In this document: positions 43,633 to 51,386 of the stretch, piece by piece
Position numbering within the stretch: position 1 is the first letter of the stretch
Layout of the letters: the number at the start of each line of letters is the position of its first letter
From: Dehalococcoidia bacterium
GTDB lineage: Bacteria > Chloroflexota > Dehalococcoidia > Lucifugimonadales > CAYTFF01
Assembly: GCA_965249025.1 (NCBI GenBank)
Contig: OZ252215.1
Location: forward strand, 306,850-370,849
Length of the DNA stretch: 64,000 nt
Reading direction: 5' to 3'
Made by a program: the position numbers and the translations under genes
The notes under the pieces: generated by a model
What the model saw: the letters and a program-made list of their open reading frames with translations, nothing else
Databases searched by the model: none
What the model was told of the DNA's origin: nothing

Positions 43633-46542
43633 ATGAAAGAAGTGGAGGCCAACCAAAAGACCAAGCTAAGCTCCTTTCCGCCTGTAGAGAGGTGGGACGA
43701 TTGGACGGAGCAGGAACCCAGGGCGCTCCCCAAGCGAGTGGAGCGCCACTACACCATCGTTCCTACCGTCTGCTTCAACTGTGAGGCGGCCTGCGGCCTT
43801 TTGGCTTATGTCGACAAAGAGACCTTTAAGATTCGCAAGCTGGAGGGCCATCCACTGCACCCCGCCAGTCGTGGCCGCAACTGCGCCAAAGGCCCGGCCA
43901 CTATCAATCAGGTGAATAACCCAGACAGGATACTCTATCCCTTAAAACGGGTGGGCCCTCGCGGCGGCCAGTGGCAGAGGGTAAGCTGGGAGGAGGCCCT
44001 AGAGGACATAGCGGGGCGCATAAGAAAAGCCCTGGATCAAGGCCGCCGTGACGAGGTCGTGTACCACGTTGGTCGGCCTGGGGAGGATATGTACACCGAG
44101 CGAGTCCTCCAGAGCTGGGGCGTTGATGGTCACAATAGCCACACCAACGTCTGCTCTGCTGGCGCCCGCGCCGGATATGCCTTTTGGATGGGCATGGACC
44201 GACCCAACCCGGACTATGGCAGCGCCAAGTTTATCCTGATGTTAAGCTCCCACCTGGAGTCGGGCCACTACTTCAATCCCCATGCCCAGCGCATAGTGGA
44301 TAGCAAGATGTTCGGCACCGGGATCGCTGTCATAGACACACGTTTATCAAACACCGCCTCTCAGGCGAACTACTGGCTCTCTCCTCACCCGGGGACCGAA
44401 GCAGGTCTGCTGCTGGCCATCGCCAACGAGCTGATTCAAAAAGATCAGATAAATCGAGCGTTCTTAGAGCAATGGGTCAACTGGAAGGAGCTGTTGGATG
44501 ATAGAGAACATCTAGCCTACATCGCGAAGAGTGGACTTCTGAAGGGGCTGCCTGATGAAGTCTCCTTCGATGCCTTTGTTGCGTTGCTGAAGGACATCTA
44601 TCGTGACTACACTCCAGAGTGGGCAGAGCAGGAGACGGGCGTGCCCGCCGAGACTATAGTTGCCATAGCCGAAGAGATTGCGCAAGCAGGCACCGCATTT
44701 GCCAGCCACGTCTGGCGCAGCGCCTCGGCGGCTCACCTGGGAGGGTGGATGGTGGCCCGCGCCCTGTTCCTTCTCAACGTATTGACTGGCTCCGTCGGGA
44801 CTCCTGGAGGCACTCTACCTAACTATTGGACGAAGTTCGTTCCCCGACCTCATACTCTACCGTCGCCGCCCAAGATGTGGAACGAGAACCACTTCCCCAT
44901 TGCCTATCCTCTCTCTCACTTCGAGATGGGCTTCCTTCTACCCCACATCCTGAAGGAGCGGGGCAAACGCATCGAGGTCTATTTCACAAGGGTTTACAAC
45001 CCCGTCTGGACCAACCCGGATGGGTTCTCCTGGATCGAGATGCTGGCCGACGAGGCCAGGATTGGACTGCACGTGGCCTTGACGCCGGTCTGGTGCGAGT
45101 CAGCACAGTACGCCGATTACGTTCTCCCTACGGGCTTGGGACCTGAGCGTCACGATCTCCACAGCTACGAGACCCATGCCTCCCAGTGGATAGGCTTCCG
45201 ACAGCCTGTGGTAAGGGTAGCCAAAGAGAGGGCGGGACAGAAGCCAGAATCTACCCTGGGCACCAATCCAGGCCAGGTCTGGGAAGAAAATGAGTTCTGG
45301 ATAGATCTGTCGTGGAGGATGGACCCTGACGGCAAGCTTGGTATCAGGAAGCACTACGAGTCGCCTTTCAGGCCTGGCCAGAAAATCACCATCCAGGAGT
45401 ACTATCGTTGGATATTCGAGCACTCGGTGCCCGGACTGCCTGAGGCCGCTGCAAAAGAGGGGCAGTCGCCTTTGGACTACATGCGCAAGTACGGCGCCTT
45501 CGAGATTACCAGGGACGTGTATAGCCAGCATGAGGCTCCCGTGCCTCCCGACGTCGCTCAACAGGCGGAGGTCGATGAGGAGACAGGCTTCCTTTGGAGC
45601 AAGTCGGCTCCTCCCAAGGTAAACTTCCGTCCAACTCCTGGCCCTTTCTTAGATGATGGTGGACGCACCCGAGTTGGCGTTGTAGTGGATGGCAAGGCCG
45701 TCCAGGGTTTTCCCACCCCTTCAGGGAAGTTGGAGTTCTTTTCCACCACGCTGAGGGATTGGGGCTGGCCTGAATACGCCCTGCCCATATATCCTCGTGA
45801 CAGCGCACAGCGGGAGGCTATGCCTCACATTACCTCTCAGGTTCACCCATCCAGAATTGATCGCTCACGTGGCGAGTATCCCCTTCTGCCCACCTTCCGC
45901 CTGCCGACCTTGATACACAGCCGCAGCAACGGCGCCAAGTGGCTCTACGAGATATCACACATTAACCCAGTCTGGATACACCCCTCCGACGCCGCAGATA
46001 TTGGAGTGGAAACAGGGGGCCTGGTCAAAGTGGAGACGGAAATAGGCTACTTTGTGGACAAGGTGTGGGTTACCGAGGCCATTCGACCTGGAGTAGTGGC
46101 CTGCTCCCACCATCTTGGACGATGGCGTCTCCACGAAGACTATGGCAGCGACCGCTGGAACTCCGCCGTGGTTGATTTAGAGAAGAAGGGAAGCACGTGG
46201 CGAATGAGGCATCGCCATGGCGTGGCGCCCTTCAAGGGCGACGCCGACTCCGAACGCATCTGGTGGAGCGATGGCGGAGTTCATCAGAACCTGACCTTCC
46301 CCGTTCAGGCGGACCCTATCAGCGGACAACACTGCTGGCATCAGAAGGTGCGTGTTACCAAGGCTCCAGCCGACGTCTCTTACGGCGATGTGGTCGTGGA
46401 CACCGAGAAGTCATTGGATAATTACAGGCGATGGTTGGAGCTAACCAGACCTGGCCCCGGCCCTGATGGACAGCGCCGACCTTACTGGCTCATTCGCATC
46501 CTCAAGCCAGACAGAGAATTCTTCGCATTGGAAAATCGCTAA
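43633..46542 (+). CDS. Molybdopterin oxidoreductase catalytic subunit (DMSO reductase family), no Tat signal
   Basis: CFNCEAAC..GRNCAKG Fe-S motif, RILYPLKR, HTNVCS, TPSGKLEF. Confidence 0.92.
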   Translation: MKEVEANQKTKLSSFPPVERWDDWTEQEPRALPKRVERHYTIVPTVCFNCEAACGLLAYVDKETFKIRKLEGHPLHPASRGRNCAKGPATINQVNNPDRILYPLKRVGPRGGQWQRVSWEEALEDIAGRIRKALDQGRRDEVVYHVGRPGEDMYTERVLQSWGVDGHNSHTNVCSAGARAGYAFWMGMDRPNPDYGSAKFILMLSSHLESGHYFNPHAQRIVDSKMFGTGIAVIDTRLSNTASQANYWLSPHPGTEAGLLLAIANELIQKDQINRAFLEQWVNWKELLDDREHLAYIAKSGLLKGLPDEVSFDAFVALLKDIYRDYTPEWAEQETGVPAETIVAIAEEIAQAGTAFASHVWRSASAAHLGGWMVARALFLLNVLTGSVGTPGGTLPNYWTKFVPRPHTLPSPPKMWNENHFPIAYPLSHFEMGFLLPHILKERGKRIEVYFTRVYNPVWTNPDGFSWIEMLADEARIGLHVALTPVWCESAQYADYVLPTGLGPERHDLHSYETHASQWIGFRQPVVRVAKERAGQKPESTLGTNPGQVWEENEFWIDLSWRMDPDGKLGIRKHYESPFRPGQKITIQEYYRWIFEHSVPGLPEAAAKEGQSPLDYMRKYGAFEITRDVYSQHEAPVPPDVAQQAEVDEETGFLWSKSAPPKVNFRPTPGPFLDDGGRTRVGVVVDGKAVQGFPTPSGKLEFFSTTLRDWGWPEYALPIYPRDSAQREAMPHITSQVHPSRIDRSRGEYPLLPTFRLPTLIHSRSNGAKWLYEISHINPVWIHPSDAADIGVETGGLVKVETEIGYFVDKVWVTEAIRPGVVACSHHLGRWRLHEDYGSDRWNSAVVDLEKKGSTWRMRHRHGVAPFKGDADSERIWWSDGGVHQNLTFPVQADPISGQHCWHQKVRVTKAPADVSYGDVVVDTEKSLDNYRRWLELTRPGPGPDGQRRPYWLIRILKPDREFFALENR

Positions 46543-48884: not shown

Positions 48885-50702
48885 TCATACAGCGCATTCT
48901 CCCTCGCCGCGCTCCATCTTGTAGAGGATGGTCTTTTCATAGTCCATATACAAGTCAATAGTATCTTTACCAAGCTTTGGCACCTCTCCAAAGGGCGCTA
49001 TTATCTCTTCAAATGGCTCCTTCCCAACCCTAGCAACGAAATCCTTGAAAGCCTCGCCCTCTCGGCGGTTCTCTTTGTAGAACGAGAGGAGCTTAAGAAC
49101 TGCCTCTGGCACTCGTTTGGCAGGGACCTTACCCCTGGGGCGTATGCCATATCGCACGTCGGCGTTCTCGTAACTTCCGCCGATGAAAAGCTCATAGGCT
49201 GGCACCTGGGCTCCAGTGGGTCCCTTCATCATGCCTCCGTGGAAGCCAATGTCAGCTACGTGGTGTCGGCCGCAGCCATTGGGACAACCGCTTGCCTTTA
49301 TGTGCATCTGCTTAATCAGAGGGTCCTGTAGAAGGTCAGCGTTGCCATTGAGGTTTTTGTGAGCCTGCATAATGGCCCGGCCAAGGCCCATCGACGAGGT
49401 AATTCCCAGCTTGCAGGTGTCGGTTCCTGGGCACGTCGTGACATCAGTAATTTTATTGAGATCGGCATCGGCTAAGTTGAGGGCCTTTAGGGCATTATAT
49501 ATGTCATAGAGGTATGTGTCTGGCACCCATCTAAGCATTAGGTTCTGCTCCGCAGTAATGCGAACTCTATGAGTTGAGTACTTGCGAGCGATATCAGCTA
49601 AGCCTCGGAACTGTTCGGGTGTGAGGTCTCCTTGATAGACCTTGACTCCTACGAAGTTGTACCTCCTCTGGGTCTGGGGTATGACGTTGCTAGTCTTCCA
49701 AGACAGGAAGGCCAGATCATCCTGACCGCCAGCCTCAACGCTATCGGGTGCTGCTGGAATATAGGATGCCTCCTCGTCGAAAAAGAGAAGATGGTCACGG
49801 TTCTCGTATTTCTGGGCCCATTCTTGCTGGAGTTCCTCATCCACCTGTTGACGGAAGGAATCCACTCCTTCGGAATGAATAAGCACTTTTATGCGCGCTT
49901 TCATCTTGTTCTTGCGAAGCCAGGCAGTCCGGTTGAAGACACGGAGAACGGCCTCGGACACCTTCAAGAAGTCTTCCACAGGCACAAACTCGTACAGAGT
50001 TTCCGCCTTAAGGGGCTGAATGGATGTCCCGCCGCCTACAGTAACCTTAAACCCCTTGCGTTGCTGGCCCTCTATTTCCCTGACTCTGGCTATAAAACCA
50101 ATATCGTGCATGGGAGTGACGGCACAGTCGTGCTCGCCGCAGGAGAATGCGGTCTTAATCTTGCGGGGCATGGTATGAGTGAAGTCCCGCCGGACGAAGT
50201 TGCGCACGTAGGCGCCCAAGTAAGGCTGGAGGTCGAAAGCTTGCAGGGGATCCAGTCCCACCATGGGGCAGCAGGTGACGTTGCGCACCGTATTTCCACA
50301 GGCATCCCTGGTGCTAAGGCCAACTGTGTGCAGGATGTGCATAGCCTCGGCGACGGTCTCTAGTGTCAGGTGGTGGAGCTGTATGTTTTCGCGAGTGGTT
50401 ATGTGCCCCTTTTTGAGAAGGGTGAACCTCTCCGCTATATTCGCTATGGCCTCTAGCTGGTCGGCGTGGACGAGGCCGCCGGGTATTTTGACCCGAAACA
50501 TCTGAGCATCAGGTTGACGCTGGCCGTATGTCCCCAAGCGTAGGCGGTATTTTTGAAATTCGATCTCATCATACTCACCGCGACGGAAGGATTTGACGCT
50601 GTCTTCAAACTCCTTTATCTCCTTTTCCTTATACTGGATGATGGAATGCGAGAGCTTAGACTGCTCTTTATCGACTTCCCTTACCCTGGTTGGTGTGCTC
50701 AA
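48885..50702 (-). CDS. Siroheme sulfite/nitrite reductase hemoprotein (ferredoxin type)
   Basis: RVKIPGG, TTRENIQ, PRKIK, TCPGTDTC and SGCPNGC ligand motifs; TTG start after AAGGAG. Confidence 0.92.
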   Translation of the reverse strand: MSTPTRVREVDKEQSKLSHSIIQYKEKEIKEFEDSVKSFRRGEYDEIEFQKYRLRLGTYGQRQPDAQMFRVKIPGGLVHADQLEAIANIAERFTLLKKGHITTRENIQLHHLTLETVAEAMHILHTVGLSTRDACGNTVRNVTCCPMVGLDPLQAFDLQPYLGAYVRNFVRRDFTHTMPRKIKTAFSCGEHDCAVTPMHDIGFIARVREIEGQQRKGFKVTVGGGTSIQPLKAETLYEFVPVEDFLKVSEAVLRVFNRTAWLRKNKMKARIKVLIHSEGVDSFRQQVDEELQQEWAQKYENRDHLLFFDEEASYIPAAPDSVEAGGQDDLAFLSWKTSNVIPQTQRRYNFVGVKVYQGDLTPEQFRGLADIARKYSTHRVRITAEQNLMLRWVPDTYLYDIYNALKALNLADADLNKITDVTTCPGTDTCKLGITSSMGLGRAIMQAHKNLNGNADLLQDPLIKQMHIKASGCPNGCGRHHVADIGFHGGMMKGPTGAQVPAYELFIGGSYENADVRYGIRPRGKVPAKRVPEAVLKLLSFYKENRREGEAFKDFVARVGKEPFEEIIAPFGEVPKLGKDTIDLYMDYEKTILYKMERGEGECAV

Positions 50703-50731
50703 TTTCGTCTCCTTTGCCTGAGTCTTACAGT

Positions 50732-50761
50732 AAAAAAGCCCCGAGAGCTATTCGTCGGGGC
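50732..50761 (-). terminator. Intrinsic terminator (attenuator) 30 nt before sulfite reductase start
   Basis: GCCCCGA-10nt-UCGGGGC followed by U6 on minus strand. Confidence 0.85.
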
Positions 50762-50812
50762 CATTGAAGAACGTTGTTTGTTAGTTTCGTTACGGAGTGT
50801 TACACCTGACCA

Positions 50813-50920
50813 TCACACAACTCTCCATGCCCCTATATTCTTTATACAGGAACACATGCAGACCATAAGGCAAACAGGAGCCCCTTCACTAATAGTATAT
50901 GCGATGCCCAACAGATTCAC
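50813..50920 (-). CDS. Cys/Met-rich leader peptide MNLLGIAYTISEGAPVCLMVCMCSCIKNIGAWRVV
   Basis: 35-codon ORF between promoter and terminator; 4 Cys + 2 Met within 9 codons; alternative ATG at 50866. Confidence 0.7.
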   Translation of the reverse strand: MNLLGIAYTISEGAPVCLMVCMCSCIKNIGAWRVV

Positions 50921-50948
50921 GTGATGACTCTTATCCAAATTTGGGCTT

Positions 50949-50977
50949 AGTTTACCCTAAAGCTGTTTTTCTGTCAA
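50949..50977 (-). promoter_or_regulatory. sigma70 promoter of leader-sulfite reductase operon
   Basis: TTGACA-17nt-TAAACT. Confidence 0.75.
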
Positions 50978-51038
50978 TACGCCGCACTACCCGCAGGGAA
51001 ATCGCTTGGAGATCCTAAAGCAGTCCCTCTACCCCCTG

Positions 51039-51386
51039 CTATGAACGCTGTTCAGATGCTTCCTCCAAGAGCCGCTCCAGTAGGGGTTGAATCTCAGGCA
51101 GTCTCAAATCTAAACTTGCGATGGAGATGGCTCTATAAAGGACACCCGTACTTATGGTAGCTTGAACTGATTCGCCAAGGGGTGGCAAATGTACCCCTAG
51201 AGCCTCAGCGACAAATTGAGCAGCTATTTTGCCGGTCTTGCTAGGATAGCACTTAGTAAGGGTTTTTCCTTTATGAAGAAGAGTAACTCCTCCGATGCTG
51301 TGGCGCAATACTACAAGTACGCCCCTGGCAGGGCGGGAGAGTACCCTCTCCGCATATGGCCAGGCTCTTTTCCGACTGACAGACAT
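51039..51386 (-). CDS. Hypothetical protein
   Basis: 115-aa ORF with protein-like composition, fills intergenic space. Confidence 0.6.
   Translation of the reverse strand: MSVSRKRAWPYAERVLSRPARGVLVVLRHSIGGVTLLHKGKTLTKCYPSKTGKIAAQFVAEALGVHLPPLGESVQATISTGVLYRAISIASLDLRLPEIQPLLERLLEEASEQRS

Follow-up and report, generated by a model that had tools for sequence, protein, structure and literature searches.

The trp, his, leu and thr operons of Enterobacteria are the classical examples of transcription attenuation by a leader peptide. Such attenuators are also summarised in the Discussion of a study on mycobacteria, in which leaderless short open reading frames (sORFs) with polycysteine tracts were described as a 'Cys ribulon' (Canestrari et al., 10.1101/834739). 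According to the accessible portion of that study, and to PMC13236596, which cites it to this effect, the Cys leader of M. smegmatis was shown to act on translation. Here we consider a stretch of 64,000 nucleotides (nt), hereafter the window, from a Dehalococcoidia bacterium of the phylum Chloroflexota (assembly GCA_965249025.1, contig OZ252215.1, positions 306,850 to 370,849 of the forward strand). On its minus strand, a promoter, an sORF containing several Cys codons and an intrinsic terminator precede sir, a gene encoding a putative sulfite reductase. Based on folding and on comparison with relatives, we consider it likely that this leader is a ribosome-mediated transcription attenuator sensing the availability of charged tRNA-Cys.

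The window leader resembles the classical attenuators in its promoter-proximal short ORF rich in codons of the end product, in its four RNA segments with predicted 1:2, 2:3 and 3:4 helices, in having an intrinsic terminator ahead of the first structural gene, and in the location of its stop codon, at which a terminating ribosome would cover segment 2. It differs from them in the amino acid sensed, which here would be cysteine, in its sulfite reductase and sirohaem targets and in its Dehalococcoidia host. Furthermore, in most of the relatives' leaders the start codon, usually ATG, is found 6-11 nt past the -10 box, and the consensus TAG lies in the loop of the 1:2 hairpin. With the mycobacterial system, as far as the accessible portion of 10.1101/834739 describes it, the window shares a Cys-codon short ORF at the 5' end of the transcript, several cysteine or sulfur loci per genome and ribosome stalling as the sensor, the first and the last being predictions here. 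In the characterised mycobacterial case, as presented there, a Shine-Dalgarno sequence is unmasked and there is no terminator, whereas here a strong intrinsic terminator follows the sORF. The mycobacterial definition, as worded there, of at least two consecutive Cys codons does not apply to the window, where they are spaced as C-x-C, while some relatives carry CC, CCC or CCCC. There is no sequence relation between the window device and the mycobacterial sORFs.

Two other sets of predicted Cys leaders are relevant. The uORFC-8-2 motif, found before cysS in Rhodobacterales, has been predicted to be a ribosome-mediated attenuator (PMC8632094). In the part of that report available to us, it shares with the present leaders the conserved Cys codons of an upstream ORF (uORF), a first stem holding them and a U-run terminator. 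However, it is described there only before cysteinyl-tRNA synthetase genes, with tandem Cys at about positions 14-15, whereas the leaders studied here precede sulfur assimilation genes and belong to Chloroflexota. Cys leader peptides have also been predicted before cys or cbs operons in Mycobacterium, Propionibacterium and Bifidobacterium (PMC1262725), and in these candidates, too, short ORFs carry Cys runs close to their stop. For them, the accessible text reports no conserved terminator hairpins and suggests Rho-dependent termination, in contrast to the conserved intrinsic terminators found here. A preliminary description of the window, made from its letters alone, had held that Cys-rich leaders are known mainly from Actinobacteria; with the predicted cysS motif of Rhodobacterales, Cys-codon attenuators with terminators are not confined to that group.

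A search of positions 50600-51100 against Rfam 15 returned only a chance match to a long non-coding RNA (E = 6.3), and none of 20 orthologous loci had a match at the gathering score. The preliminary description knew of no such element in Chloroflexota; in agreement, none was found described for Chloroflexota or Dehalococcoidia in the openly searchable full-text literature, a scope that leaves aside supplements and subscription-only papers. In the accessible part of PMC4833913 the single mention of Chloroflexi concerns sparse data. The element would belong to a known kind of regulator and is unsurprising in principle; new would be the phylum and the target genes, which probably make up an entire regulon.

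The features of the leader and of the start of sir are as follows, in window positions.

50977-50972, minus strand: -35 hexamer TTGACA, which together with the -10 hexamer gave 10 of 12 in the promoter scan
50954-50949, minus strand: -10 hexamer TAAACT, with a spacer of 17 nt to the -35 hexamer
50938-50813, minus strand: leader sORF, the frame being open from TTG 50938 (41 codons), with a TGA stop codon at 50815-50813
50872-50846, minus strand: putative regulatory codon block C-L-M-V-C-M-C-S-C
50872-50870 (TGC), 50860-50858 (TGC), 50854-50852 (TGT) and 50848-50846 (TGT), minus strand: Cys codons
50866-50864 and 50857-50855, minus strand: Met codons within the block
50864-50844, minus strand: segment 1, 5' arm of the predicted anti-antiterminator (fold without ribosome), holding the last two Cys codons
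50838-50809, minus strand: segment 2 (AUAUAGGGGCAUGGAGAGUUGU...), in folding the alternative partner of segment 1 or segment 3, with the stop codon inside
50785-50755, minus strand: segment 3, terminator 5' arm plus upstream flank, in folding the antiterminator partner of segment 2
50762-50732, minus strand: intrinsic terminator, stem 50762-50752 with 50746-50737 (10 bp, -15.2 kcal/mol), U-tract T6 at 50737-50732
50715-50708 and 50702-50700, minus strand: ribosome-binding site (RBS) AAAGGAGA and TTG start of sir, whose N-terminus matches the ATG-started ortholog in locus L002

The promoter, the Cys-codon ORF, the terminator, the RBS and the TTG start had all been listed in the preliminary description and were recovered at the minus-strand coordinates given there; the observation as such is confirmed. 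The leader length of 35 codons reported with them corresponds to the frame from an in-frame GTG at 50920, but the start is uncertain, as the frame is also open from the TTG at 50938, 10 nt past the -10 box. The leader contains four Cys in 35-41 codons, no two of them adjacent. Promoter-like sites numbered 3 in the 1-kb region, against 0.9 expected from shuffles. The arms of the terminator (GCCCCGA/TCGGGGC) are GC-rich, and a consensus terminator scan, with a loop limit of 8, gave only an inner 5-bp version of it.

The leader from 50942 to 50728 was then folded; wherever a ribosome was placed, all bases as far as 12 nt beyond the first one of the A-site codon were barred from pairing. Without a ribosome, the terminator had a probability of 0.96 and 50864-50844 paired with 50838-50820 over 17 bp. 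In this fold the last two Cys codons are paired with AUAUAGGGGCAU, the G-run, giving a 1:2 anti-antiterminator hairpin with a core (50855-50827) of -12.5 kcal/mol, an addition to what the preliminary description had listed. A ribosome with its A site at the first Cys codon (50872) gave a terminator probability of 1.00, and so did one at the stop codon. Terminator probabilities of 0.55, 0.41 and 0.39 were obtained when the A site was placed on Cys codon 50860, 50854 and 50848, respectively, with the antiterminator at 0.42-0.57; folding with the ribosome at the Cys codons versus the stop was a check proposed with the original observation, and its outcome for the last three Cys codons is as anticipated. 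The antiterminator is the minimum-energy fold in the stalled state, with 50833-50829 paired to 50761-50757 (5 bp) and 50827-50809 to 50785-50765 in an interrupted second helix of 17 bp; the region 50838-50755 amounts to -25.4 kcal/mol. The proposed pairing of 50833-50817 with 50777-50757 is thus the minimum-energy fold with the ribosome on a Cys codon. The G-run begins at the 13th nt after the last Cys codon, in agreement with the preliminary description, which had placed this arm just beyond the footprint of a stalled ribosome. In nascent RNA, before the 3' arm of the terminator, the antiterminator probability was 0.94 with the stalled ribosome versus 0.00 with the ribosome at the stop.

The size of the switch, i.e., the terminator probability without a ribosome minus that in the stalled state, was 0.59. 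When the leader, from its first Cys codon through the terminator, was subjected to 400 dinucleotide shuffles, 6 of them reached this value. Leader ORF, Cys-codon enrichment, terminator, an antiterminator freed by stalling and a 1:2 hairpin were all found in silico for the window. In constrained folding the three ribosome states (on a Cys codon, on the stop codon, none) yield textbook attenuator logic for the window leader, and the trp/his geometry attributed to it earlier is borne out in these predictions.

The mechanism that we propose would proceed as follows. Transcription would start a few bases after the -10 box and the sORF would be translated at once. With cysteine plentiful, the ribosome would reach the UGA at 50815-50813 and cover segment 2, the terminator at 50762-50737 would fold, and transcription would stop at the U-tract before sir. 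In the absence of a ribosome, segment 1, with the last two Cys codons, would pair with segment 2 and the terminator would fold as well. When Cys-tRNA is scarce, the ribosome would stall when any of the last three Cys codons enters its A site, covering segment 1 and leaving the G-run exposed; segment 2 would then pair with the terminator 5' arm and its flank, resulting in read-through into sir-hemD-sirC-cobA. This interpretation is supported by the foldings and comparisons, and from the sequence we infer the translation of the sORF, the stalling, the increased read-through upon cysteine starvation and the response to cysteine itself. In a search of public sequencing runs for the locus, seven runs of DNA or of unspecified type were listed, four of these with all words from a single sample, and no RNA run.

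Conservation was assessed upstream of 47 sir orthologs (49-74% identity), namely the window's own, 43 from other genomes of the order, each of a different family, and three from further records of metagenome-assembled genomes; three sir paralogs were also looked at. One ortholog (L027) is cut by a contig end, which leaves 46 assessable loci, falling into the following classes.

29 of 46 loci: Cys-cluster sORF (at least 2 Cys within 5 codons) and GC-rich U-run hairpin directly upstream of sir
1 of 46 (L007): sORF present, hairpin without a U-run by the rule used
1 of 46 (L017): conserved block present, but codon 4, which follows the ATG and precedes the Cys codons, is an in-frame TGA
3 of 46 (L023, L029, L047): clearly homologous leaders with a single Cys
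2 of 46 (genomes G031 and G006): leader farther upstream, before intervening genes
10 of 46: nothing found

Absence of Cys-rich uORFs from the orthologs had been named as an outcome that would speak against the idea; a uORF with a terminator was found instead in the 29 loci of the first class. The automatic choice had fallen on the wrong ORF in L021 and on the wrong frame in L047, and these picks were corrected or dropped. A stricter automatic detector responded in 19 of 33 loci, at distances of 69-205 nt upstream from sir, compared with 10 matches in 151,730 nt of the reverse strand of the same loci. We regard the comparative evidence for the predicted leader ORF and terminator as decisive. 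In several of the ten empty loci sir lies directly behind another gene; by eye, the gene before sir is cysH-like or sat-like in L032 and L036 and TauE-type-like in L003 and L008. The leader with the in-frame TGA (G043:C7) may represent a decayed leader, an assembly error or a case of read-through.

These counts bear on the possibility that a constitutive promoter, a random small ORF and a non-regulatory hairpin merely co-occur. The energy of the whole-leader fold is ordinary compared with shuffles (z = -0.79 and -1.22), and small ORFs with at least 3 Cys per 9-codon window are common, with 1070 in a six-frame scan of the genome, as would be expected under coincidence. Coincidence is contradicted by the excess of the stricter detector's matches over the 151.7 kb control strand, by another such leader elsewhere in the genome, ahead of a gene resembling cysteine synthase, and by the rarity of the predicted switch among shuffles. 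We exclude chance because the architecture recurs in relatives, and consider it highly improbable.

The leaders of relatives have several features in common. A promoter of the form TTGACA, 16-18 nt, TAnnnT was found in 28 of 31 flagged leaders, and the short distance from the -10 box to the start codon suggests that the relatives' sORFs are probably leaderless, or almost. Taken irrespective of frame, the first ATG downstream of the -10 box was in frame with the Cys codons, and the frame was open, in all 26 leaders with a promoter and an ATG (binomial p = 4e-13 against one third), a figure inflated by their preselection for some in-frame start. Cys accounts for 89 of 560 codons (15.9%) across 30 leaders, versus 0.84% in the long ORFs of the window's genome (G000), although these leaders were selected on Cys clusters and the unbiased comparison is the count of the stricter detector. 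The last Cys codon is TGT in 23 of the 30 leaders and in 22 of 22 sequences of the alignment described below, usually followed by A, while TGC is the preferred Cys codon of G000, with 4197 occurrences versus 2310 of TGT, and tRNA-Cys(GCA) is its single tRNA-Cys. TAG serves as the stop in 21 of the 30 leaders and is almost invariably followed by GGG, and Pro is the last residue of 14 of the 30 peptides. The regularities around the last Cys codon and the stop concern columns 23-26 and 38-43 of the alignment, and positions 50848-50845 of the window. In the common short form the frame ends with ...C-x-C, 2-4 codons and TAG, the stop lying in the loop of a small hairpin with the G-run directly after it. 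In the extended form, to which the window leader belongs, the same ATAGGGGC block is part of the open frame, whose stop codon comes about 18 nt later; further examples are L002, L004, L031, L046 and L049 and the second copy in G000. The TGT codon, the TAG-GGG and the Pro end may reflect the kinetics of decoding and termination, or merely RNA pairing.

In the window, and likewise in about nine relatives (e.g., L002, L004, L007, L021, L022, L039, L044, L076 and L077), Met codons occur among the Cys codons or right after them, and Met makes up 3.8% of leader codons versus 2.4% genome-wide. One may speculate that the interspersed Met codons add some methionine sensitivity.

The nucleotide-level regularities raise the question of whether the terminator could be controlled by an untranslated RNA element (a small riboswitch, or a protein- or small RNA-binding site), with the Cys codons being part of an RNA motif. 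The conservation of the TGT codon and of TAG-GGG exceeds coding need, the loop that contains the stop codon belongs to a covarying hairpin, and an ATG is missing from the window sORF. Such an element would not account for the 26 open in-frame ATGs, and the number and spacing of the Cys codons vary freely, from 2 to 9 Cys arranged as CC, CxC, CxCxC, CCC or CCCC, so that amino-acid identity is kept but no RNA motif. Moreover, the conserved block spans just about 30 nt, no Rfam family matches, and the targets are exactly cysteine and sulfur assimilation genes. We thus believe that an untranslated element is an improbable explanation, though the invariance of TGT-A and TAG-GGG points to some nucleotide-level constraint in addition to coding.

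Pairing was evaluated in a trimmed alignment of 22 sequences (A2), which replaced a MAFFT alignment (A1) on which RNAalifold gave just 6 terminator pairs because the terminators were misaligned. In A2 the 1:2 hairpin around the stop codon is 66% paired, with 4 of 6 pairs altered on both sides, and the terminator is 81% paired. Taken jointly, the two helices have a covariation of 0.221 versus 0.156 in shuffles, with none of 500 shuffles as high, and their pairing is 75.9% versus 34-52% in slid controls. The core of the antiterminator, in which the G-run pairs with the C-run of the terminator arm, is kept in 18-21 of the 22 sequences, and the segment 2-3 pairs of each locus were better than cross-locus pairs by -1.11 kcal/mol after double centring (permutation p = 0.005). 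In nascent transcripts of the orthologs, pairing of the terminator arm was 0.61 for a ribosome at the last Cys codon, 0.44 for one at the stop and again 0.61 when there was no ribosome; the stalled state exceeded the stop state in 17 of 30 leaders and the reverse was seen in 1 of 30. As sequence-based predictions, the leader ORF, terminator and 1:2 hairpin have good support throughout the order; support for the antiterminator is good in the window and weak in most relatives. The expectation of conserved Cys codons and covarying helices, put forward with the original observation, is borne out by the Cys clusters and by the covariation of the 1:2 hairpin and the terminator; covariation of the antiterminator is not significant.

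Several results weigh against an attenuator of this kind, or against its uniformity among relatives. The window sORF has neither an ATG nor a clear Shine-Dalgarno sequence, its candidate starts being TTG or GTG, and it is the sole leader of its list without an ATG. The covariance model R1, built from the short form of the orthologous leaders, has no matches in G000, the window's own leader included, and the kinship of the latter with the consensus family would rest on architecture and on a short shared block. The canonical form is missing at 17 of the 46 orthologous loci, and nearly all sequences come from uncultured genomes, the relatives not being independent samples. The core of the antiterminator lacks covariation on the fixed columns of A2 (109 of 500 shuffles as high), and duplexes between the post-Cys region and its own terminator arm have a mean z of only -0.89, with p at most 0.05 in 6 of 30. 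Across the orthologs the ribosome-free state does not reduce the pairing of segment 3, which equals that of the stalled state, and at full-length equilibrium a clear terminator switch was found in 2 of 30 leaders (L001 and L049) and a partial one in L046. In most orthologs the switch would therefore have to be kinetic.

It is also conceivable that the sORF acts mainly on the translation of sir by masking of the RBS, or that the Cys peptide has a function of its own, the hairpin being a leaky terminator or an RNA stabiliser. There is a precedent in the mycobacterial polycysteine leaderless sORFs, which unmask a Shine-Dalgarno site in the case set out in the accessible portion of 10.1101/834739. 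In the window, UCUUC (50770-50766) pairs with GGAGA of the sir RBS (50712-50708) in the minimum-energy fold of 50770-50680, and the same UCUUC is occupied by segment 2 in the antiterminator fold. However, this 5-bp pairing is missing from the centroid and the fold is no better than shuffles (z = -0.43). A strong GC-rich U-run hairpin precedes the gene in the 29 orthologous loci mentioned above, and the peptide outside its Cys codons is not conserved, with lengths of 12 to about 50 codons. We find this explanation quite improbable, while noting that the UCUUC:GGAGA pairing, weak as it is, may provide a second, translational layer on top of transcription attenuation.

The leader family extends beyond sir. 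R1 matches were found in 33 of 61 genomes of the order, usually one each and before sir. In a sample of the class, 5 of 151 genomes gave matches, all of one genus of another family and before an ORF of roughly 500 amino acids (aa), and in a sample of the phylum there was one weak match in 151. The filters of these large searches were strict, so that weak matches can be lost. All R1 matches away from sir show the design of promoter, ATG, Cys cluster and terminator. These leaders, and those of unusual sir contexts, are distributed as follows.

G045, G013 and G019 (in G019 directly after sir): before TauE and 3'-phosphoadenosine-5'-phosphosulfate (PAPS) reductase (cysH)
G034: before PAPS reductase
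G020 and G044: before TauE
G039: before ThiF and PALP
G030: before TusA and DsrE2
G035: before DsrE2
G056: before a CMD-family gene
G031: before sirC-cobA-sir
G035 and G053: before sir paralogs

The copy in G019 (L090, G019:C7 467711-467821, minus strand) is a further complete leader, with a terminator and a run of five Cys codons, located directly downstream of sir and before TauE-cysH; the cluster would thus carry two predicted attenuators in series. Another, weak match of the covariance model (L091) was rejected, as it looks like an ordinary terminator at a gene end.

In G000, a single contig of 3.28 Mb, Cys-cluster sORFs followed by terminator-like hairpins were scanned for, giving 17 crude candidates and later 25 matches. 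Among these, the architecture fits the sir leader and one further leader only, the remaining matches not having been followed up. This second Cys leader (L097) lies outside the window, at about 103503-103370 of G000:C1 on the minus strand within a locus at about 103370-103560, with a promoter GTGACA-17-TATACT and an ATG 9 nt past the -10 box. It consists of a 21-codon sORF with ...C-A-C-M..., the same read-through ATAGG-GGGGC block and a 12-bp terminator, and it precedes genes for DUF4395 and for a 321-aa PALP enzyme that is cysK/M-like, with ThiF upstream of these. In its nascent fold, the pairing of segment 3, the terminator arm, was 0.27 without a ribosome, 0.66 with a stalled ribosome and 0.26 with the ribosome at the stop.

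Two other candidates in G000 were discarded. An sORF with ...CCPC... before a TrpB-like PALP gene (464 aa) belongs instead to a T-box leader (89.9 bits, gathering score 93, E = 2e-20; L098, 27-301), located outside the window at about 2122526-2122800 of G000:C1 on the plus strand. T-boxes and leader peptides thus appear to coexist in G000. Directly upstream of ThiF, a 9-codon ORF with two Cys has an ATG that overlaps its only -10-like box and no terminator after it. An ORF of about 145 aa, also upstream of ThiF (G000:C1, about 104800-105240, minus strand), resembles, judging by eye, an Rrf2/CymR-type regulator.

A broader proposal, for and against which we find the case evenly balanced, is that one order of Dehalococcoidia, together with one genus elsewhere in the class, controls its whole cysteine and sulfur network by a family of probably leaderless Cys-sORF/terminator devices, i.e., a transcriptional 'Cys ribulon' independent of the translational one of mycobacteria. 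Its members would be sulfite reductase, sirohaem synthesis, reductases of PAPS or of adenosine 5'-phosphosulfate, TauE permeases, ThiF-CysM and TusA-DsrE2. The invariant, wobble-read UGU and the Pro-UAG in the hairpin loop before the G-run would be tuned kinetic features in this proposal, slowing decoding at the sensing codon and holding the terminating ribosome on segment 2.

If the attenuator reading is true, Chloroflexota would gain their first described amino-acid attenuator, which would also be their first described regulatory device responding to cysteine; this phylum is mostly uncultured and abundant in sediments and seawater, and its gene regulation is almost unknown. Cysteine sensing by ribosome stalling would have arisen in at least three phyla with differing outputs, a terminator here and masking of the RBS in mycobacteria. 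The device is compact, at about 200 nt, and its sequence signature could mark sulfur-assimilation genes in metagenomes; it would point to sulfur roles for TauE, DUF4395, DsrE2, TusA and the CMD-family protein.

Regarding the downstream operon, the following genes were identified in the window.

50702-48885, minus strand: sir, a NirA/Sir-type sirohaem-[4Fe-4S] reductase of 605 aa (Pfam NIR_SIR and NIR_SIR_ferr)
48863-48006, minus strand: HemD gene, in the same operon as sir
48055-47324, minus strand: gene of the sirohaem synthase N-domain type (sirC), in the same operon
47321-46539, minus strand: tetrapyrrole methylase gene (cobA), in the same operon

With NCBIfam, the reductase falls in the NirA/Sir/CysI group with no equivalog cut-off reached. 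It is probably an assimilatory sulfite reductase, its substrate being suggested by the context; a Cys attenuator upstream would argue for sulfite, not nitrite, as the substrate of this NirA/Sir-type enzyme. Homologs of CysH, TauE and DsrE2 were absent from G000 in tblastn searches with the relatives' proteins as queries (E at most 1e-8). A gene for a 969-aa molybdopterin oxidoreductase (43633-46542, plus strand) converges on the operon at its far end.

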